DNA from: a virus
Taxonomy: Duplodnaviria; Caudoviricetes
Direction: 5' to 3' (one strand)
DNA: 53,119 nt
Virus record (IMG/VR): IMGVR_UViG_3300044608_001820
Span: 1-53,119 of that record
Shown here: positions 5,172-22,924 of the stretch, piece after piece
Layout of the letters: each line of letters starts with the position of its first letter
How positions within the stretch are numbered: position 1 is the first letter of the stretch
Notes under the pieces: model-generated
The model's database searches: none
Told to the model about the DNA's origin: nothing
What the model saw: only the letters and a program-made list of their open reading frames with translations
Made by a program: the position numbers and the translations under genes

Positions 5172-5633
5172 ATGGTAGGAACCATCACTCACAACGGAGT
5201 TCTTCCTCGCGGCACTTACTATGTCGGGGATCTGTGTTACGTGGTCAAAGATGATGAGTGGGAGAATTATTGCGATCGGTCATTCCCTGATGATGGTTAC
5301 GAGCACATCGGAATCTTTGAAAATTACGACGGGATCGAGTACGCAACCTTCGGAACTAAGTACGGAGACGGCGAGTATTTTGACCAATACGGCGATAGTT
5401 ATGCTGTAGACAGCGGGTCTATCGGTTGTATTCCGATTAGCGCCGTCGCAGATAAGTATGACATGGATGAGATCATCCGACTTGGTAATATCGTCAGCTT
5501 TAACGAACCGTTCTATTGCGAATACGATAACGAGACGGGCACTATTCGCATCGGACACGTTGAGATTGTGACCGGACAATCTGAGGATGAGGATGAGGAC
5601 GAATACGATTACGATTCGGAGGATGAGGAATGA
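5172..5633 (+). CDS. hypothetical acidic protein (DUF4241-like motifs)
   Basis: YYVGDLCY and VDSGSIG motifs; D/E-rich tail. Confidence 0.6.
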   Translation: MVGTITHNGVLPRGTYYVGDLCYVVKDDEWENYCDRSFPDDGYEHIGIFENYDGIEYATFGTKYGDGEYFDQYGDSYAVDSGSIGCIPISAVADKYDMDEIIRLGNIVSFNEPFYCEYDNETGTIRIGHVEIVTGQSEDEDEDEYDYDSEDEE

Positions 5634-5806
5634 GACCGAAATTTAGGGTGATCCTCGAGCAAGCGATCGAGGAAGGTGTGAGACGTGGTTATACTCGAGC
5701 GTTCAAACACAATGATAGTCCTTCCGAGGGCGCCATCCTTGAGTCGCTTGAGGAGCATGTCATGAGTTCCATTTACGAGTATTTCACATTTGATGAGGAT
5801 GAGTAA
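5630..5806 (+). CDS. small hypothetical protein (not in ORF track)
   Basis: MRPKFRVILEQAIEEGVRRG...; ATGA coupling. Confidence 0.55.
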   Translation: MRPKFRVILEQAIEEGVRRGYTRAFKHNDSPSEGAILESLEEHVMSSIYEYFTFDEDE

Positions 5807-6011
5807 TAAGACGAAACTCCTGAGAGACATTACAGAAGTCATCAACTTCCATGGCGAACGCGATTCCAGCCCTGGGGAGTTAGCTCAGGCGGTGATCAAC
5901 ACCACAGCTGACTGGTTTGAGGACGTTCTTCTAAATATCGGAATCGCTCCCAGCACCATCCCGGCGCTTCTCCGCTGGCAAGCACACCAACACGAGTACA
6001 TCGATGACTGA
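5799..6011 (+). CDS. hypothetical protein
   Basis: coupled ORF. Confidence 0.55.
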   Translation: MSNKTKLLRDITEVINFHGERDSSPGELAQAVINTTADWFEDVLLNIGIAPSTIPALLRWQAHQHEYIDD

Positions 6012-16377: not shown

Positions 16378-16851
16378 ATGTCGCCGCCCGTTGCGCTCAA
16401 CAAAAGTATCCTTGTTCTCAACGCATCGTACGAGCCTCTCAACGTATGCTCAGGGCGGAGAGCATTTGTGCTGGTATTGAAAAAGAAGGCACAGGTGCTA
16501 TCAAGGCAGGTCATCCGACTTCTTAGCTACATCAGACTTCCGATGAGTCGGATCAATGCGAAGAAGCCAAGTCGGAATCTCATCCTCAAGCGCGACAATT
16601 TCACTTGTCAGTACTGCGGCGCAGACCGCAATCTGACAATCGATCATGTCTTACCGCAATCACGAGGAGGGAAGGATACGTGGGAGAATCTTGTTGCCTG
16701 CTGTTATACTTGCAACAACGCAAAAGATAATCGTACTCCTGAGGAGTGGGGCGTCCCACTTCGCAGCAATCCGCACGCTCCCTTTAGTCGGTTTCTTCTG
16801 ACGCTAAGTACAAACTCAGTGCCAGAGTGGCGTGAGTACTTATATGTCTAA
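16378..16851 (+). CDS. HNH endonuclease (McrA/HNH_5 type)
   Basis: LVLNASYEP, RDNFTCQYCG, TIDHVLPQSRGG, WENLVACCYTCNNAK. Confidence 0.9.
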   Translation: MSPPVALNKSILVLNASYEPLNVCSGRRAFVLVLKKKAQVLSRQVIRLLSYIRLPMSRINAKKPSRNLILKRDNFTCQYCGADRNLTIDHVLPQSRGGKDTWENLVACCYTCNNAKDNRTPEEWGVPLRSNPHAPFSRFLLTLSTNSVPEWREYLYV

Positions 16852-16892
16852 GTTCACATTTAGACAGATCTTTGATAATCAAAGAACTTGAT

Positions 16893-16965
16893 CGGGATGT
16901 AGCCCAGCGGAAGAGGCCATGGACTTAAAATCCATTCAGGGTGGGTTCGAATCCCACCATCCCGA
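16893..16965 (+). tRNA. tRNA-Leu(TAA), short variable arm
   Basis: cloverleaf; ATGGA-CTTAAAA-TCCAT. Confidence 0.88.
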
Positions 16966-16971
16966 TCGAAT

Positions 16972-17052
16972 GCCCAGATGGTGGAATGGTATACACAGCA
17001 CGCTTAGAACGTGCCGCTGCAAGGCATGGAGGTTCGAGTCCTCTTCTGGGCA
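16972..17052 (+). tRNA. tRNA-Leu(TAG)
   Basis: GCACG-CTTAGAA-CGTGC; long variable arm. Confidence 0.92.
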
Positions 17053-17090
17053 TAGTCCAATCTTTGGACTAAATATACTCAACTTAGGGT

Positions 17091-17163
17091 AATACAAGTG
17101 TACTTGTGACACTTGCCTAAGTGTCCACTAAAAGTCCCAAGGGGCGCGTGGATCCTGTATATT
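17091..17163 (+). promoter_or_regulatory. LexA-like box (17091-17104) + phage promoter P10
   Basis: AATACAAGTGTACT then TGTGACACTT-GCCT-AAGTGTCCAC-N29-TATATT. Confidence 0.72.
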
Positions 17164-17171
17164 GATTTCAT

Positions 17172-17211
17172 GGTTGGGGGAGACACCCCGCCGAACCTCG
17201 AAAACTTCATA
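17172..17211 (+). promoter_or_regulatory. boxB-like hairpin + rrn boxA-like antitermination site
   Basis: hairpin followed by GAACCTCGAAAACTTCATA. Confidence 0.65.
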
Positions 17212-17224
17212 AGCAATATTCTCT

Positions 17225-17296
17225 GGGTCGCTAACTCAGTGGTAGAGTAGTCGGCTCTTAACCGATCTGTCCTCGGTTCGAATCCGAGGCGACCCA
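17225..17296 (+). tRNA. tRNA-Lys(CTT)
   Basis: GTCGG-CTCTTAA-CCGAT. Confidence 0.93.
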
Positions 17297-17298
17297 TC

Positions 17299-17402
17299 GA
17301 GACCGGATCACGGGGTGCCTGGGCGGCACTCGGAAAGAAAAGCCTCCAGTAGGAACTTTCCAGTGACGGGTTCGATTCCCGTCCATTCCACTTTCCGGTC
17401 TC
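17299..17402 (+). ncRNA. tRNA-like RNA (Ala-type acceptor, T arm, no canonical anticodon arm)
   Basis: GGGGTG/CATTCC-A stem with G3.U70; GACGGG-TTCGATT-CCCGTC; flanking 9-bp inverted repeat. Confidence 0.55.
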
Positions 17403-17413
17403 AAGGCGCCGCT

Positions 17414-17486
17414 AGTACCCCTGTACTAGGGACACTTCACCAAGTGTCCACTAAGCGCGCCACCCGCCCCTTGGGCGGTGTATATT
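17414..17486 (+). promoter_or_regulatory. LexA-like box (17414-17427) + phage promoter P11
   Basis: AGTACCCCTGTACT then AGGGACACTT-CACC-AAGTGTCCAC-N29-TATATT. Confidence 0.75.
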
Positions 17487-17494
17487 AGATTCAT

Positions 17495-17538
17495 GGTTGG
17501 GAGGGCGATCACCGCTCCTCCGACCCGAACCTCGAAAA
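17495..17538 (+). promoter_or_regulatory. boxB-like hairpin + boxA-like site
   Basis: GGTTGGGAGGGCG...CGCTCCTCCGACC followed by GAACCTCGAAAA. Confidence 0.65.
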
Positions 17539-17552
17539 TCTAAATTCTTCTC

Positions 17553-17624
17553 GGTCCTATCGACTAGCGGTTAGGTCACAACCCTTTCAAGGTTGCAGCA
17601 CGGGTTCGAATCCCGTTGGGACTA
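17553..17624 (+). tRNA. tRNA-Glu(TTC)
   Basis: CAACC-CTTTCAA-GGTTG. Confidence 0.92.
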
Positions 17625-17768
17625 CTGGGAGTGAAGCTGAATGACTTCGGTCAGGGAGGTCACTCCACCCAGTTCTTGGATAAAACGCGGGGACTAGGGA
17701 CGCCCGCCTTTTGGTAACCTCTGGGGAGGAGGTTAATGACGGCTGCACCGTCCCAGCCAAAAGTCCAT
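17625..17768 (+). ncRNA. unassigned structured RNA
   Basis: UUCG-capped hairpin plus a multi-stem domain. Confidence 0.45.
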
Positions 17769-17842
17769 GACCCATTAGTGTAGCGGTCTATCACGCCACC
17801 CTGTCACGGTGGAGATCACGGGTTCGAATCCCGTATGGGTCG
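17769..17842 (+). tRNA. tRNA-Asp(GTC)
   Basis: CCACC-CTGTCAC-GGTGG. Confidence 0.93.
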
Positions 17843-17843
17843 T

Positions 17844-17972
17844 TGGGTTGCTGCCCGATATGAGAAACACTCTTTTCTGCCCCGGTGGAATTGGTGAAAA
17901 GTCGGAATTACCCTTGCCCCGTCTCTTGGGGATGCGAATTGGGGAAAGGTAAAGGGAAGAGACAGCAACCCA
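17844..17972 (+). ncRNA. unassigned structured RNA with pseudoknot
   Basis: 10-bp closing stem; loop GTCTCTT complementary to AAGAGAC. Confidence 0.5.
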
Positions 17973-17976
17973 TATT

Positions 17977-18048
17977 GGAATCGTAGCTCAGTGGTAGAGC
18001 ACTCGGCTGATAACCGAGCGGTCACAAGTTCAAATCTTGTCGGTTCCA
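17977..18048 (+). tRNA. tRNA-Ile(GAT)
   Basis: CTCGG-CTGATAA-CCGAG. Confidence 0.93.
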
Positions 18049-18052
18049 CTCT

Positions 18053-18125
<73 letters not shown>

Positions 18126-18149
18126 TCGAGAATCTTTCGATTCTCTTAC

Positions 18150-18226
18150 TGTGGAGTAGAGCAGTCCGGTAGCTCGCCAGGCTCATAACCTGGAGGTCGC
18201 AGGTTCGAATCCTGCCTCCGCCACCA
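18150..18226 (+). tRNA. tRNA-fMet(CAT), initiator type
   Basis: 1:72 mismatch, CCAGG-CTCATAA-CCTGG, encoded CCA. Confidence 0.88.
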
Positions 18227-18227
18227 T

Positions 18228-18299
18228 TGGCCTGTAGTTCAGCGGTAGAACGCCTGACTGTTAATCAGGTTGTCGCAGGTTCGATCCCTGCCGGGCCAG
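18228..18299 (+). tRNA. tRNA-Asn(GTT)
   Basis: CCTGA-CTGTTAA-TCAGG. Confidence 0.93.
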
Positions 18300-18300
18300 T

Positions 18301-18749
18301 TCCGCTCTGCTTGGTCTGGAAATGTCCGGGTCAAGTATCGGATCTAAGTCCTAGTTCTGGGGCCCTCCATCGGTGAGGATCACCCTTCCTAGGCCGGGGG
18401 ACTGATCACCCCCGCCCGTTTGACCCACTGTCGGGTCGCGATGGCGGGCAGTTGCCATCGTTCCATTGCGGTTTGCCTCACCGTCCCGCGTTCTTCGGAT
18501 CGCCCGAGGGAGAACGAGGCAATCTCCGTTCTAGACACCGGAGTCGTATGGAATACGTCGTTAAGTTCCCGAAACGGCCACGCACACATTCGTTAAAGTG
18601 TGGACTAGCAGATTGCTCCTAGCTCGCACTAGCTGTGGGCCACCGAAAGGTGACCAATCCCGGTCTCTGCCCGTATGGGGAGCAACTAGCTAGAAAAGCC
18701 CCCACCTCTGTACGTCCTTGAGGCGTTTCATGTGTTAAATGGGGCCTTC
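18301..18749 (+). ncRNA. large (~450 nt) highly structured non-coding RNA candidate
   Basis: many helices with G.U pairs, a GAAA tetraloop and long-range complementarity; no credible ORF. Confidence 0.55.
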
Positions 18750-18823
<74 letters not shown>

Positions 18824-18845
18824 TTGCCTTCAAGGAAGGCACAAT

Positions 18846-18936
18846 GAGAGGGTGGCTACTGTTGGCAATACGTGTGGCTGCGGTCTGTAAAACCGTTACA
18901 TAGGAACCATCGGGGGTTCGATTCCCTCCCCTCTCA
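18846..18936 (+). tRNA. tRNA-Tyr(GTA), atypical D arm
   Basis: GCGGT-CTGTAAA-ACCGT. Confidence 0.82.
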
Positions 18937-18939
18937 TCC

Positions 18940-19014
18940 GCCGCCATAGCTCAGTGGTAGAGCACCTCTTTGGTAAAGAGGAGGTCTCGAGTTCAAGTCT
19001 CGATGGTGGCTCCA
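18940..19014 (+). tRNA. tRNA-Thr(GGT)
   Basis: CCTCT-TTGGTAA-AGAGG; CCA. Confidence 0.93.
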
Positions 19015-19086
19015 GGTCGCTTAGCTCAGCGGTAGAGCTCTTGCCTTACAAGCAAGCTGTCACTGGTTCGATCCCAGTAGCGACCA
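19015..19086 (+). tRNA. tRNA-Val(TAC)
   Basis: CTTGC-CTTACAA-GCAAG. Confidence 0.93.
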
Positions 19087-19210
19087 TTGGTAGTCGTTGT
19101 GCAGATAGCACAGAAAGACGCCAAAGGGGGTGCAACAAGGAACGTTGCATTAAACGAAAGGTCCCGTAGGCCACATCGTAGATTATCGTTGGTGGACACC
19201 TTCGCCCTGC
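19087..19210 (+). ncRNA. unassigned structured spacer RNA
   Basis: three hairpins, one with an internal GAAA bulge. Confidence 0.35.
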
Positions 19211-19212
19211 TC

Positions 19213-19285
19213 GGGGAATTAGCTCAGTTGGTAGAGCGCCTGCTTTGCAAGCAGGCTGTCAGGAGTTCGAGTCTCCTATTCTCCA
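19213..19285 (+). tRNA. tRNA-Ala(TGC)
   Basis: CCTGC-TTTGCAA-GCAGG; G3.U70. Confidence 0.95.
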
Positions 19286-19305
19286 TCGTTCCTTCGGGAA
19301 CACCC

Positions 19306-19380
19306 GCGGATGTAGCTCAGTGGTAGAGCATCTCCTTGCCAAGGAGAAAGTCGAGGGTTCGAATCCCTTCATCCGCTCCA
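19306..19380 (+). tRNA. tRNA-Gly(GCC)
   Basis: TCTCC-TTGCCAA-GGAGA; CCA. Confidence 0.95.
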
Positions 19381-19383
19381 CTT

Positions 19384-19466
19384 GGAGGGAGTCCGGTTGG
19401 TCGAGGAAAGCGTCTTGAAAACGCCTGGGTGTTAAAGCCTCACGGGTTCGATTCCTGTTCCCTCCG
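19384..19466 (+). tRNA. tRNA-Ser(TGA)
   Basis: GCGT-CTTGAAA-ACGC; variable arm. Confidence 0.85.
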
Positions 19467-19468
19467 CT

Positions 19469-19541
19469 GTGGTCGTAGCATAATGGTTAATGCGCCAGAT
19501 TGTGGATCTGGTTTATGTGAGTTCAAATCTCATCGGCCACC
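19469..19541 (+). tRNA. tRNA-His(GTG)
   Basis: CCAGA-TTGTGGA-TCTGG; C73; T at position -1. Confidence 0.9.
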
Positions 19542-19543
19542 CC

Positions 19544-19615
19544 GCTCGATTAGCTCAGTGGTAGAGCAACTGTTTCGTAAACAGTAGGTCGTCGGTTCAA
19601 GTCCGACATTGAGCT
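19544..19615 (+). tRNA. tRNA-Thr(CGT)
   Basis: ACTGT-TTCGTAA-ACAGT. Confidence 0.92.
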
Positions 19616-19632
19616 TCTGCTTTCGCAGAAAT

Positions 19633-19704
19633 GTTTCGGTAGCCAAGCGGTAAGGCGAAGGTCTGCAAAATCTTCATTCGTCGGTTCGATTCCGACCCGA
19701 AACT
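19633..19704 (+). tRNA. tRNA-Cys(GCA)
   Basis: AAGGT-CTGCAAA-ATCTT; U73. Confidence 0.92.
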
Positions 19705-19723
19705 TTGGCCGCGTGCCAAATAA

Positions 19724-19798
19724 TCTGGAGTCGCCAAGCGGTAAGGCAGCGGGTTTTGGTCCCGCCATTCGTGGGTTCGAATCCTACCTCCAGAACCA
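19724..19798 (+). tRNA. tRNA-Gln(TTG)
   Basis: GCGGG-TTTTGGT-CCCGC; CCA. Confidence 0.92.
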
Positions 19799-19800
19799 AT

Positions 19801-19874
19801 GTCCGTGTGGCGCAATTGGTAGACGCGCTACTTTGAGGTGGTAGTTGTTGGAGGTTCGAGTCCTCTCACGGACA
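19801..19874 (+). tRNA. tRNA-Leu(GAG), short variable arm
   Basis: CTACT-TTGAGGT-GGTAG. Confidence 0.88.
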
Positions 19875-19876
19875 TT

Positions 19877-19948
19877 GTCAGAATAGTGTAGTTGGAAACA
19901 CGGCGGTCTCCAAAACCGTAATCCGGGGTTCGAATCCTCGTTCTGGCG
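19877..19948 (+). tRNA. tRNA-Trp(CCA)
   Basis: GCGGT-CTCCAAA-ACCGT. Confidence 0.92.
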
Positions 19949-19952
19949 CCTT

Positions 19953-20026
19953 GCTCCCCTAGCTCAGCGGATTAGAGCGTCTGACTACGGATCAGAAGGT
20001 CGAAGGTTCGAATCCTTCGGGGAGCG
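19953..20026 (+). tRNA. tRNA-Arg(ACG)
   Basis: TCTGA-CTACGGA-TCAGA. Confidence 0.93.
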
Positions 20027-20029
20027 TGT

Positions 20030-20103
20030 GTGCCCTTAGCTCAGCGGATTAGAGCAACCGCCTTCTAAGCGGTCGGTCATAGGTTCAAATCCTATAGGGC
20101 GCG
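20030..20103 (+). tRNA. tRNA-Arg(TCT)
   Basis: ACCGC-CTTCTAA-GCGGT. Confidence 0.93.
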
Positions 20104-20107
20104 CCTT

Positions 20108-20181
20108 GAGAGATTAGCTCAGTCTGGTAGAGTACGGGTCTCATATGCCTATGGTCGGTGGTTCAAATCCACCATCTCTCA
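20108..20181 (+). tRNA. tRNA with CAT anticodon (Ile2 or elongator Met)
   Basis: GGGT-CTCATAT-GCCT; identity ambiguous. Confidence 0.8.
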
Positions 20182-20184
20182 TCC

Positions 20185-20258
20185 GCCCTCTTAGCTCAGT
20201 GGAATAGAGCATCTGGCTTCGAACCAGAAAGTCGTAGGTTCGAATCCTACAGGGGGCA
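20185..20258 (+). tRNA. tRNA-Arg(TCG)
   Basis: TCTGG-CTTCGAA-CCAGA. Confidence 0.9.
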
Positions 20259-20262
20259 CCTT

Positions 20263-20352
20263 GGAAGATTGGCCGAGTGGTTTAAGGCGACGGTTTGCTA
20301 AACCGTTGTGTCGGTAACGGCACCACTGGTTCGAATCCAGTATCTTCCGCCA
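20263..20352 (+). tRNA. tRNA-Ser(GCT)
   Basis: ACGGT-TTGCTAA-ACCGT; long variable arm; CCA. Confidence 0.93.
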
Positions 20353-20424
20353 GGGCGATTAACTCAGAGGTAGAGTACTTCCTTGACACGGAAGAAGTCA
20401 CTGGTTCGAATCCAGTATCGCCCA
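20353..20424 (+). tRNA. tRNA-Val(GAC)
   Basis: CTTCC-TTGACAC-GGAAG. Confidence 0.93.
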
Positions 20425-20426
20425 TC

Positions 20427-20499
20427 GCTTCCTTAGCTATCTGGTGAAAGCGCCCGACTCATAATCGGAATCAGGCGAGTTCGATCCTCGCAGGAAGCA
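20427..20499 (+). tRNA. tRNA with CAT anticodon (elongator Met or Ile2)
   Basis: CCGA-CTCATAA-TCGG. Confidence 0.82.
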
Positions 20500-20504
20500 C
20501 CTAA

Positions 20505-20576
20505 GGGTTATTAGCTCAGCGGTAGAGCATCCGGCTTTTAACCGGTCGGTCCCCAGTTCGAATCTGGGATGACCCA
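20505..20576 (+). tRNA. tRNA-Lys(TTT)
   Basis: CCGG-CTTTTAA-CCGG. Confidence 0.92.
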
Positions 20577-20594
20577 TCGTTCCTCACGGAACGA

Positions 20595-20799
20595 CAATCC
20601 AGTTCGGACACGGGTTCGACTCCCGTATGCTCCATTGAATAATTTTGTTGAAGTAGTTTCCCTAAGAAAGGAACTGTGACCACAAAACTATTCATCATGG
20701 GGCATAAAGGCTTTCGACGGGCTGGAGGGTTCTGAGAACAAATCTCAACAACATCGTACGTTTCGAACGCGTTGCCGTCGCCGCCTGAGCGAACAACCC
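20595..20799 (+). ncRNA. ssrA: permuted two-piece tmRNA
   Basis: acceptor piece ending ATGCTCCA (20634) precedes the coding piece GGGGCAT...TTCGAC (from 20699); tag LNNIVRFERVAVAA* at 20744-20788. Confidence 0.88.
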
Positions 20800-20851
20800 G
20801 TGACGATATCTGGGAGGGACATTTGTGCCCTCCCTTTCTCTAAGACTAACA

Positions 20852-21472
20852 ATGCCACTCCTCAATCGGGCTGACGGGAAATCGATCAATTTTATCCACA
20901 TTCCGCGCACAGGCGGAAGATTTGTCGTAGAACTTTTTCGGAGTAACGGGTTCGACTTCACCTTCCCTGAAGACCATCGATTGCACTGGTCAAAGACAGT
21001 TGATGGGCATGAGGTGATGCATTTTCATGCGGAGTTGATGACCAGATATTTGAATCTCGTTGGCATTAGATCATTTACGATCGTTAGAAATCCGATATCC
21101 AGGTTTATCTCCGCGGCTCCTGCGATGTTAGACTTGTTGCACGCGCCGCTAACTGAAATATCTCCCGAGGAGCTGGAGAAAAGTCTAAGCGCAGCCCTCG
21201 CTTTTGCGCCAAATTGGTTTAGACCTCAGCATGAGTTCATACTTCCTGGCACCTTAATTTGGAGATATGAAGATGGACTCGATGAGAAATTTTTTGATTG
21301 GTTACGCAGAGTCGTGGGGGTTTCTCTCTCATTAAATCACAACATAGCTTTGGGATCTCACCCGCATGACAGATCACACAAGCCGTATTTGCCTGAACGT
21401 CTTATACCGACTCTAAAAAAGTTTTACGCCAGAGACTTTGAGTTACTAAACTCTCGTCATAGCTACATTTAA
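20852..21472 (+). CDS. sulfotransferase family 2-like protein
   Basis: FIHIPRTGG (5'-PSB-like), FTIVRNPISRFIS (3'-PB-like), WFRPQHEF. Confidence 0.75.
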   Translation: MPLLNRADGKSINFIHIPRTGGRFVVELFRSNGFDFTFPEDHRLHWSKTVDGHEVMHFHAELMTRYLNLVGIRSFTIVRNPISRFISAAPAMLDLLHAPLTEISPEELEKSLSAALAFAPNWFRPQHEFILPGTLIWRYEDGLDEKFFDWLRRVVGVSLSLNHNIALGSHPHDRSHKPYLPERLIPTLKKFYARDFELLNSRHSYI

Positions 21473-21533
21473 GGATTTTTTCACGACGAGACGGCGTCCC
21501 GCGATAGATACTACGTCAAGGCCCCTCAGAACG

Positions 21534-21602
21534 AAAAAATCGAAAAGTGTAAGGCTCAAACCCCTTGCAGCACCTAGTCTCGAGACTAGTACGATCGTAC
21601 TA
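21534..21602 (+). repeat. intergenic repeat family B, copy 3
   Basis: AAAAAATCGAAAAGTGTAAGGCTCAAACCCCTTGC-N19-AGTACGATCGTACT. Confidence 0.75.
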
Positions 21603-21653
21603 ATCGCAGGCCGCGGGAGCCGAGGCCCCAATTTCACTGGGCCTTAACAATCC

Positions 21654-21830
21654 TATAATAATCAGGTCTCGTAGCGATACAAACTCGCAACGGTTATGAG
21701 ACGTTCCGGCGCACCACGCACCGGCGAGACTCGGAAGTGCAACGCTTCTTAAACACCTAGAGCCCGGCGAGGTGCCTCCTGAGATGGAGGATGTGTGACC
21801 CTCGCGATACGGGATGTCGAATTCTATTCT
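21654..21830 (+). promoter_or_regulatory. -10 TATAAT and structured 5' leader (riboswitch-like)
   Basis: nested stems upstream of the RlpA-like gene. Confidence 0.5.
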
Positions 21831-21835
21831 TTCTA

Positions 21836-22204
21836 ATGCTTTTTTCGAGACTCAAATCCCTAGTTGGTTTATCAGCGATCGCCATCTTGACCGCAATTCC
21901 AAGTCCGTCTCTCGCAGCAACTCGTTGTTCGGGAGCAAGCTTCTACGGAGTTGGAGATGGCTATCACGGACAAACCACAGCGAGCGGCGAACGATTCAAC
22001 ACGTACGCAATGACGACAGCTCACCGCTCACTGCCCTTCGGAACTCGGCTTCGTGTCACAAGCAATGGACGATCAGTTATCGTTCGAGTGAATGACCGCG
22101 GTCCGTTTGTCGGAGGTAGGGATCTCGACCTCTCGTACGCGGCGTTCAGCACGCTTGCGGCACCGAGCAGAGGTCACATCGATGTGTGCTACTCGCGTGT
22201 CTGA
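21836..22204 (+). CDS. rlpA: RlpA-like double-psi beta-barrel lytic transglycosylase with signal peptide
   Basis: [34 protein letters not shown]. Confidence 0.88.
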
Positions 22205-22263
22205 TCGCTATAATTGATAAGCGATATTCAAGGGAAGAGACTCATTATCTTCCCTTTCCTTTT

Positions 22264-22337
22264 GCCTCCATAGCTCAGCTGGATAGAGCAACTGTTTTGT
22301 AAACAGTAGGTCGCGGGTTCAAGTCCTGCTGGGGGCT
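22264..22337 (+). tRNA. tRNA-Thr(TGT)
   Basis: ACTGT-TTTGTAA-ACAGT. Confidence 0.92.
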
Positions 22338-22381
22338 TGGGACACATGTCCCACTCATGAGTTCAAAGCATTTTAGGTAAC

Positions 22382-22924
22382 ATGCAAGTTCCTTATATCG
22401 ATTTCATCTTCCGCGAGGGCGGTGAGTTTGTGACCCGCACTTCGAAGGAGATCTTCAGCGGCAAGCGTGTGGTTGTGTTCGCCCTACCTGGCGCCTTCAC
22501 ACCTACCTGCACCGAACAACAACTCCCCGGGTTCGAAGCCTCCTACGACGAGATCAAGTCGTTTGGCGTCGATGAGATCTATTGCCTCGCCGTGAATGAC
22601 GCATTCGTGATGAATGCCTGGTTCAAGGATCTAGGCATCACTAAGGTGAAACCTCTGCCCGATGGCAATGGTTCGTTCACCGCCAGTGCTGGCATGGCTG
22701 TAGCCAAGACTAACCTCGGTTTCGCTTCGCGTAGCTGGCGTTATGCCGTGGTGATCAACGACGGCGCCATCGAGTGGGCTGGCGTGGAGCAGGGCAAACG
22801 TGACAATGCCTCCGATGATCCGTACACCGAGTCCACACCCGAGCGTGTGATCCAATATCTTCAAGCCAAGCAAAATCAAGGCAGCGAGGCTAATGTCAGT
22901 GAGATCCTGACCGCTTCGAGGTAA
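22382..22924 (+). CDS. peroxiredoxin (Prx5/type II)
   Basis: LPGAFTPTC, VNDAFVMNAW, DGNG, RSWRYA. Confidence 0.92.
   Translation: MQVPYIDFIFREGGEFVTRTSKEIFSGKRVVVFALPGAFTPTCTEQQLPGFEASYDEIKSFGVDEIYCLAVNDAFVMNAWFKDLGITKVKPLPDGNGSFTASAGMAVAKTNLGFASRSWRYAVVINDGAIEWAGVEQGKRDNASDDPYTESTPERVIQYLQAKQNQGSEANVSEILTASR

Follow-up and report, generated by a model that had tools for sequence, protein, structure and literature searches.

The spacer at positions 18301-18749 of the IMG/VR virus record IMGVR_UViG_3300044608_001820 (53,119 bases, the whole of which is called the window here) lies in a tRNA gene array, between tRNA-Asn and tRNA-Pro as the first-pass annotation of this DNA had placed it, and is a plus-strand non-coding structured RNA of about eight modules that re-assort among lake cyanophage-like contigs. 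Its 5' domain of ~115 nt (18299-18414), in which a terminal hairpin (M5) is followed by two others (hpA and hpB), is homologous, as judged from sequence and pairing, to an unannotated family of bacterial small RNAs (sRNAs) that is usually found beside a PemK-family toxin gene. That the spacer is a real modular RNA with this bacterial sRNA homology is very probable. The overall reading advanced here, an orphan RNA antitoxin mimic carried in a modular spacer and released by tRNA processing, stands at about an even chance; of its parts, release of the spacer as a stable RNA appears probable, and the antitoxin-mimic function of the phage RNA is a tentative proposal.

Homology of the 5' domain was detected with a covariance model, R1, that was built from 19 bacterial sRNAs alone and was run with filters off on both strands of the whole window. 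Its best match is 18299-18405 on the plus strand (17.7 bits; E 0.0022, a rough value, the calibration having been shortened), and the next match reaches 10.3 bits. M5 aligns to model positions 1-26 over 18299-18342, and beyond it the window has the linker UAAGUCC (18345-18351), a CCUAG/CUAGG hairpin (hpA), and then hpB, in the position that the last hairpin (hp2) has in the bacterial sRNA. When R1 was applied to 56 phage or metagenome loci anchored on M3, the 3' terminal hairpin of the spacer, 43 were matched at E<=0.01. In three loci that lack the insert MX carried by the window in the hpA loop (L181, L187 and L144; collected loci are cited by L numbers) the alignment runs end to end at 31-40 bits, M5 and hpA each falling on its namesake and hp2 on hpB. 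The R1 alignment of 80-nt short forms has the closing stem of M3 standing in for hp2.

The strict M5 pattern, GTTCCCGCTCTGC-N2-10-GCATCGGGC with 22 bases specified, occurs in 91 GTDB genomes that by their record titles belong to many phyla (Alpha-, Beta- and Gammaproteobacteria, Acidobacteriota, Planctomycetota, Nitrospirota, Bacteroidota and others). The bacterial sRNA is ~130 nt long and single copy in each of the five genomes searched; TTGACA/TATAAT-like boxes stand upstream of it, and M5 is followed by two more hairpins and a terminator. In the collected bacterial loci (L319-L409 and L415-L420) the 5' hairpin GUUCCCGCUCUGC..GCAUCGGGC is accompanied by two covarying hairpins, and 19 of the 22 "UAAGUCC-type" copies, aligned with one another, give 21 consensus pairs, 11 of them with two-sided changes. 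The family is absent from Rfam, a comparison of 18 loci at E<=1 having given a single hint, BjrC68 at 23 bits; blastn found no match to the sRNA in 50,697 phage records or in E. coli genomes; and literature searches, at the level of titles and abstracts, gave nothing on this sRNA or on the phage cassettes related to it.

The gene neighbouring the bacterial sRNA encodes a ~140-aa protein, with a match to Pfam PemK_toxin (E about 3e-13) at three of five loci examined in depth, and tblastn places a toxin of this family next to the sRNA at 64 of the 91 bacterial loci, mostly on the same strand and ending just upstream of the sRNA, sometimes convergent with it. The gap from toxin stop to M5 is 18-19 nt in all three loci measured. 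At L418 the toxin occupies 5560-5988 and the sRNA begins at 6007; on the 11-kb Polaromonas plasmid pH8NP1 the toxin lies at 1138-1560 and the sRNA at 1579-1660, where the sRNA is unannotated and no antitoxin gene is annotated next to the toxin. The protein is called YifN (PemK superfamily) in one source and a type II PemK/MazF toxin at NCBI, and a protein atlas finds the family commonest in Pseudomonadota; the sole NCBIfam match, a weak one from one of three toxins, is to endoribonuclease MazF at E 0.0042 and 17.1 bits, where the cut-off is 120. None of the bacterial loci examined showed a protein antitoxin gene, and at L418 only 100 nt separate the toxin from the upstream transposase gene, which leaves no room for one. 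The tie between toxin and sRNA is one of genetic linkage, and binding and inhibition of the toxin are putative; on this footing the sRNA would be an RNA antitoxin acting on the toxin protein, the two forming a type III-like pair. Antisense control of the toxin was considered and rejected, the sRNA having no special complementarity to the translation start at any of three loci (z +1.2, +1.3 and +0.1).

A toxin gene accompanies M5 or M3 in just 3 of 193 viral or metagenome loci, and tblastn of five toxin-locus open reading frames (ORFs) against the window gave nothing credible (best E 0.025); toxin genes being missing beside them, the phage copies are orphans. The two other traits of the bacterial sRNA, its own sigma-70 promoter and a terminator after hp2, are likewise absent in and beside the spacer, where tRNA-Asn lies directly upstream.

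The modular nature of the spacer emerges from comparison with relatives, and it is this comparison rather than the energy of the whole-spacer fold that mainly supports a structured RNA. A search with the DNA polymerase of the window yielded nine loci at 69-86% identity, and the tRNA regions of five of these records (G001-G005) were compared with the window, from which their tRNA arrays differ greatly. G002 has the same Asn-Pro junction with a spacer of only 137 nt, G003 a 140 nt spacer between tRNA-Asn and tRNA-Thr, and G004 a 177 nt spacer between tRNA-Asp and tRNA-Ile. The segment 18697-18749, which belongs to M3, is found at 88-90% identity in G001, G003 and G004, directly before tRNA-Thr in G003 and tRNA-Ile in G004 and with no tRNA called directly after it in G001; G002 matches 26 nt alone of M3 (18705-18730, 88%), before tRNA-Pro. 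Positions 18302-18354 recur in G001 and 18353-18465 in G004, and none of the five has anything that corresponds to 18466-18696. It follows from this module-by-module presence and absence that the spacer is a mosaic. More widely collected loci agree: L171 is 94% identical to 18344-18414, L249 72% to 18392-18749, L140 91% to 18523-18739, and L141 and L212 71% to 18521-18749, and each module of the spacer (Table 1) has homologues among the collected loci, in other combinations and company. Loci were counted as distinct by sequence alone, and related populations may have been counted more than once. The spacer as a whole matched nothing among 50,697 phage records (blastn), nor among 102 loci collected after a search with the HNH endonuclease encoded upstream of the array (blastn and nhmmer), and the M3 core is absent at up to three mismatches from Synechococcus phage S-CBWM1.

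Table 1. Modules of the spacer and the tRNA genes on either side of it; module coordinates were read directly from the window sequence.
Feature	Position	Strand	Description
tRNA-Asn (GUU)	18228-18299	+	Rfam; acceptor pairing read; discriminator G18299
M5, 5' terminal hairpin	18300-18344	+	lower stem UCCG/CGGA, internal loop CUC/U, upper stem UGC/GUA
Linker UAAGUCC and hpA (CCUAG/CUAGG), MX in loop	18345-18393	+	linker aligns to R1
MX (GUUCUG...)	18354-18388	+	34-nt insert in hpA loop
hpB, GGGGG/CCCCC with loop ACUGAUCA	18394-18414	+	occupies place of hp2 in bacterial sRNA
MY, two adjacent hairpins, GACCC/GGGUC and GCGAUGGCGG/UUGCCAUCGU	18415-18465	+	folded structure
MZ, GCGGU/ACCGU hairpin, UUCG-capped hairpin, conserved 3' stretch GAGAACGAGGCAA	18466-18522	+
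MW, ~80 nt, nearly invariant	18523-18603	+	near-identical in L140, L141, L212, L249
MV, multibranch domain, UUGCUCC/GGAGCAA closure, CACC-GAAA-GGUG inside	18604-18693	+
M3, 3' terminal hairpin	18694-18749	+	GCCCC/GGGGC closing stem; CCUCUG strand; abuts tRNA-Pro
tRNA-Pro (UGG)	18750-18823	+	Rfam, ARAGORN; abuts spacer 3' end

Among these relatives the local hairpins keep their pairing across two-sided changes, with G.U pairs that fit the plus strand alone. Homologues of M5 and M3 were gathered with exact patterns (that for M3 has 26 positions), and covariation was taken only from free positions or from sets anchored on the other module. M5 of the window has a U-A pair in place of a C-G of the consensus lower stem CCCG/CGGG, both sides being altered, and its upper stem is extended by a G.U-rich hairpin; the 13-bp hairpin of the first-pass annotation, with four G.U pairs, lies here at 18308-18337. 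This long-extension form recurs, at 82-87% identity, in L144, L183, L249 and other loci. Bacterial and viral loci together provide 35 distinct hpA hairpins with many different stems, and MX is represented by 13 distinct sequences with 7 distinct inner stems (CCAC/GUGG, CCUC/GAGG, CCUG/CAGG and CCGA/UCGG among them) in a per-sequence stem search. The hpB hairpin of the window (stem GGGGG/CCCCC at 18396-18413) has relatives with stems CGGGGGG, CAGAGG, CAGGAGG and CGCAGGG and with loops AUGGCC or UUGAUCA-like. The closing stem of M3 varies with pairing kept (GCCCAAGC/GCUUGGGC, GUCCAAGC/GCUUGGAC, GCCCAAGU/ACUUGGGC, GGCCAAGC/GCUUGGUC, GCCUAAGC/GCUUAGGC, and GCCCC/GGGGC in the window). Within M3 of the window an inner hairpin ACGUC/GGCGU is followed by UUCAU and a tail CUUC; elsewhere the inner hairpin is GCGUC/GGCGU, GCGUU/AACGU, CAUC/GGUG, GGCU/AGCC, CCGGUC/GGCCGG or a longer one, and all variants retain the strands CCUCUG and CAC. 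Among the interior modules, over 18421-18465 MY is 89% identical to L167 and L169 and it is present in L151 too, MZ recurs in L249, L197, L169, L140, L141 and L315 at 74-84% identity, MW is almost unchanged in five sequences despite differing flanks, and the sole homologue of MV is in L140 (91% identity), L141, L212 and L249 having another module in that place. MX, MW, M5 and M3 are new RNA motifs with enough homologues for curation.

The same comparisons bear on two readings in which the spacer is not an RNA gene at all. A hidden small protein gene is extremely unlikely: ORFs of 49-66 aa overlap 18301-18749 on both strands, but none spans a conserved block, and relatives differ by whole-module insertions and deletions and by stem-preserving changes rather than codon-like ones. 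The view that no credible ORF is present is thus borne out, the longest overlapping ORF having 66 aa, and a protein-coding spacer was ruled out. It is likewise most improbable that the spacer is a DNA-level element or debris, such as recombination or homing hot spots or decayed tRNA genes, within an array that homing endonucleases are shuffling. The strong mosaicism would suit such an origin, as would tRNA-like inserts inside some of the frames and the HNH endonuclease gene at 16378-16851, directly upstream of the tRNA array. This endonuclease is mobile, since its 80%-identity relatives occupy non-syntenic, tRNA-free places: of 215 relatives 80 were taken, they are not syntenic, and tRNAs numbered 0 in 14 of 14 loci scanned. 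A DNA element, however, would not be expected to keep stem pairing through two-sided changes, to cap stems of variable length with UUCG or GAAA tetraloops, or to have G.U pairs that suit one strand only; nor did ARAGORN and Rfam call any tRNA, transfer-messenger RNA (tmRNA) or tRNA remnant inside 18301-18749.

A third alternative, that the spacer is one large ornate RNA with a single global fold like GOLLD or ROOL, perhaps dimerising or forming cages through the palindromic hpB loop, is improbable. The first-pass annotation had pointed to GOLLD and ROOL as large RNAs that occur beside phage tRNA arrays, and had left open one large RNA or several without assigning a family. In keeping with the latter caution no Rfam family matches inside 18301-18749 at the gathering score, at E<=10 in a scan of 16500-22500, or at E<=0.05 over the whole window; the search at E<=10 leaves kinship with GOLLD or ROOL without support. 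The helices it had listed are all where it placed them on base-by-base reading: besides those of M5 and hpB, CGGTGAGG at 18371-78 is complementary to CCTCACCG at 18476-83, TTCCAT at 18461-66 to ATGGAA at 18548-53, and TTGCTCC at 18613-19 with GGAGCAA at 18679-85 encloses CACC-GAAA-GGTG at 18641-52. The two long-range helices are nevertheless not conserved, their halves lying in modules that are found apart in relatives, and a single global fold closed by them is not supported. The first helix spans MX and MZ, of which MX occurs without MZ in L151, L129 and L175 and MZ without MX in L249, L197 and L169; ATGGAA belongs to a hairpin of MW itself, which occurs without the upstream TTCCAT in L249 and L212. 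The closure of MV is kept in L140 only, without informative change.

The whole spacer folds on the plus strand at -171.7 kcal/mol, a marginal result in favour of a single fold (z -1.96, 2 of 100 shuffles being as good; z -1.57 on the minus strand), but the minimum free energy structure has a near-zero ensemble frequency. Folded module by module, z is -4.54 for M5, -2.53 for hpB, -2.96 for MY and -2.56 for MV, and the energies of hpA with MX, of MZ, of MW and of M3 are not significant when each is folded singly. A global fold would also accord with an M5...M3 frame in 44 of 57 loci, of which the window has the largest clear example, and with the hpB loops that follow hpA in cyanophage-type elements, all of which, on covarying stems, contain the 4-base palindrome GAUC or GGCC. 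These palindromes are suggestive of kissing-loop dimerisation by sequence, and provide no test of it since there are only two loop types. Against the single fold stand the other module orders (in L171 tRNA-Asn is followed by M3 and then by hpA-MX-hpB, so that the M5/M3 frame itself is not obligatory), the many loci in which M5 and M3 alone form an 80-nt unit, and the absence of the interior from the five polymerase-anchored phages. Of the earlier alternative, "several" RNAs, in the form of about eight re-assorting modules, is therefore closer to what is found than "one large" RNA.

The M5/M3 frame defines the probable ends of the RNA. The M3 core pattern is found in 27 IMG/VR loci and 45 metagenome loci, which with the window makes 73 sequences, 57 of them distinct. 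M5, sought in these as CCCG-CUC-UGC-cap-GCA-U-CGGG with at most one mismatch in the first ten bases, lies upstream of M3 in the 44 loci already mentioned, at 33-404 nt from the M3 core in 43 of them (404 nt in the window) and at 567 nt in L141. The shortest forms, the 80-nt units, consist of M5, ~5 nt and M3, and are intergenic and without tRNAs; longer frames contain small hairpins, tRNA-like inserts or, in three loci, true tRNAs. M5 is far commoner than M3, since its pattern alone gives at least 120 IMG/VR loci. Among the matches listed, 110 distinct viral loci have T at -15 in 70, A at -14 in 73 and T at -10 in 77, that is, a TAnnnT box followed by six bases, GTT at -3 to -1 (96, 102 and 90 of the 110 listed) and then CCCG. 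The geometry is that of a -10 element, with the transcript predicted to start at the G of GUUCCCG. What follows M5 varies by locus and can be an M3-like hairpin, hpA, a tRNA or what looks like a start codon. Another module recurs next to the frame hairpins, immediately before M5 in L249, L212 and L144 and immediately after M3 in L141; it starts ...GGUAAGGAAAGCAAAAGGAGCAUGGGAACC (L140, L141, L144) and ends ...GGAUACCGCACCUGCCUC (L140, L144, L212, L249).

In the window M5 begins one base after the tRNA-Asn discriminator, and no promoter stands there. The discriminator being G18299, 3' maturation of tRNA-Asn would make M5 the start of the spacer RNA, which would begin with UUCCG... and be one base shorter there than the promoter-driven form, and RNase P cleavage at 18750 would leave M3 with its CUUC tail as the 3' end. 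Both release steps would follow from established tRNA maturation. Promoter-like and terminator-like sites were found neither inside nor beside 18301-18749, so that tRNA processing, already proposed in the first-pass annotation, would be the natural route of release; the cutting step itself is one that we infer. RNA-library contigs are at most a weak hint of the product: contigs from library X24 cover 18467-18558 and 18596-18745 with 5 differences each, and a 415-nt contig at depth 255 from X23/X22 (which look like one data set filed twice; assembled contigs only) covers 18524-18603 within MW. This cover is partial, carries no ends or strand, and may derive from DNA; a DNA run covers the entire spacer at depth 10-27.

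The main rival to the antitoxin-mimic reading arises from these same ends. It holds that the modules are a processing and stability scaffold only, protecting RNA ends from nucleases and presenting tRNAs to RNase P and RNase Z without any function in trans, and that the likeness to the bacterial sRNA is that of a shared mobile 5' stabiliser; we consider it somewhat unlikely. The position of M5 and M3 as the exact two ends of the window spacer speaks for it; so does M5 in the 110 viral loci listed, which in roughly two thirds of them sits where transcription is predicted to start, ahead of very different things, and so does the tRNA called by ARAGORN directly after M3 in 18 of the 57 distinct loci. 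The other 39 M3 copies, however, have no tRNA called right after them. At least 22 identical bases across bacterial phyla would be needless for a plain stabiliser, as would conservation of the whole three-hairpin body M5-hpA-hp2/hpB; the near-invariance of MW is left unaccounted for, and linkage to one toxin family at 64 of 91 loci would be unexpected.

The mechanism proposed, in which the phage RNA mimics a host antitoxin, is as follows. The spacer would be co-transcribed with the tRNA array and excised by the enzymes that mature the 3' and 5' ends of tRNAs, M5 forming the 5' end, like the start of the promoter-driven copies, and M3 the 3' end. If the bacterial sRNA is the RNA antitoxin of its toxin in a type III-like manner, the phage M5-hpA-hpB copy may act as an antitoxin mimic or decoy for a PemK-like toxin of the host, which would stay inhibited once host transcription stops, and abortion of the infection by the cell would thereby be prevented. 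The remaining modules may serve as additional decoys, or for stabilisation or processing.

Several points weigh against this mechanism or the homology beneath it. The R1 score of the window is modest and comes mostly from M5 and the UAAGUCC linker, its E-value is a rough one, and because of the MX insert the model registers hpA and hp2 wrongly in the window, the alignment beyond the linker being forced. The invariance of the M5 and M3 pattern bases is partly by construction, since the homologues were gathered by exact patterns. M5 stands at the head of many phage transcripts of unrelated content, tRNAs and apparent mRNAs among them, which fits a general 5' stabiliser equally well, and the M3 core pattern is found in 0 GTDB genomes and thus has no bacterial counterpart there; nothing suggests a role for modules MY to MV. 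On the bacterial side, the toxin was not found within the available flanks at 27 of the 91 loci, and beyond Pfam PemK the toxin has no NCBIfam match above cut-off, no PADLOC match and no PDB sequence match. None of the 91 GTDB genomes is titled a cyanobacterium, no dedicated cyanobacterial search having been made, so that a target toxin in the host is unsupported. The partial cover by RNA-library contigs belongs here as well.

Likenesses to known systems are partial. ToxI consists of 36-nt repeats in tandem, lies upstream of toxN and is cut by the toxin. Blower and colleagues reportedly described in 2012 a pseudo-ToxI RNA of phage PhiTE directed against ToxIN, an antitoxin-like RNA against a MazF/Kid-fold endoribonuclease with no toxin gene beside it. 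By analogy with PhiTE, the mechanism proposed here would be that of an orphan phage RNA mimicking a host antitoxin. Unlike ToxI, the bacterial RNA consists of one three-hairpin unit and follows the toxin gene, and the window has no tandem repeat, the phage copy being embedded in a tRNA array with extra modules. The tandem-repeat type III architecture (ToxI, CptI, TenpI) was ruled out for the spacer, Tandem Repeats Finder having returned 0 rows over 18200-18850 at a minimum score of 30. The T4 tRNA cluster includes the stable small RNAs species 1 and 2 (RNA C and RNA D), which are freed by tRNA processing. The likeness here is one of position among tRNA genes; the T4 RNAs are two fixed genes, whereas the spacer is built of shuffled modules and has a bacterial homologue linked to a toxin. 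GOLLD (RF01998) and ROOL (RF03087) resemble the spacer as structured non-coding RNAs beside phage tRNA genes, but the spacer is shorter, its modules are separable and it has no conserved global core.

The abiF RNA motif is tied in bacteria to abortive-infection (Abi) genes. A copy (RF03085) lies in L202 at 909-945, 85 nt after M5, with 53.5 bits against a gathering score of 37, and copies below threshold (31-34 bits) are found at L142:924-961, L121:4544-4591 (a polymerase relative) and L127:598-645; the Rfam search found none in the window. Within the same phage cassette chains it is a small hairpin module unrelated in sequence to M5 or M3, and it is a second Abi-linked RNA there. An abiF RNA is also reported in cyanophage S-CREM1 (PMC9964418).

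The window has an estimated completeness of 24% and encodes DNA polymerase, portal, protease, major head protein, sheath-like and baseplate proteins, thymidylate synthase, topoisomerase and peroxiredoxin. The nearest named phage by capsid protein is S-CBWM1 at 62% identity, S-TIM5-like cyanophages coming next at ~40%, and the DNA runs that hold the spacer are labelled as lake water or freshwater metagenomes. The array comprises 30 tRNA genes on the plus strand (16892-20576), with another tRNA at 22264, and is closed by a permuted two-piece tmRNA gene at 20588-20788 (20545-20965 by ARAGORN). Permuted tmRNA genes are present in L122, L127, L167 and L169 too, those of L167 and L169 also scoring 65 bits on the cyanobacterial tmRNA model. 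At 18845-18939 ARAGORN calls a 95-nt tRNA-Arg (GCG), an odd long-arm tRNA-like gene for which Rfam has no tRNA match, giving tRNA-Sec at 32.5 bits and nothing else; in the relative G002 the corresponding position is taken by an 82-nt tRNA-Tyr. The more distant relative G005 has beside tRNA-Pro a tRNA called by ARAGORN with anticodon UUA, of the ochre suppressor type (L125:4880-4949). The gap between tRNAs at 19087-19212 holds a module of 47-55 nt common to L140 and L249 at 85% identity, and the remaining gaps of the window array probably hold cassettes of the same kind as the spacer.

An unannotated sRNA beside a widespread MazF-like toxin, on chromosomes and a plasmid, is a candidate new class of RNA antitoxin; RefSeq labels the toxin "type II" without a partner. 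If the proposed pairing is correct, the YifN toxin and the three-hairpin sRNA would represent a single-unit RNA antitoxin system. The widest form of the idea, doubtful as it is at present, is that this toxin and its downstream sRNA are a widespread type III-like family, and that phage tRNA arrays may be RNA anti-defence islands in which shuffled orphan copies of toxin- or Abi-partnered RNAs are excised as decoys. Were this the case, the long-puzzling non-tRNA RNAs of phage tRNA clusters would gain a testable function, the RNA mimicry of host antitoxins.

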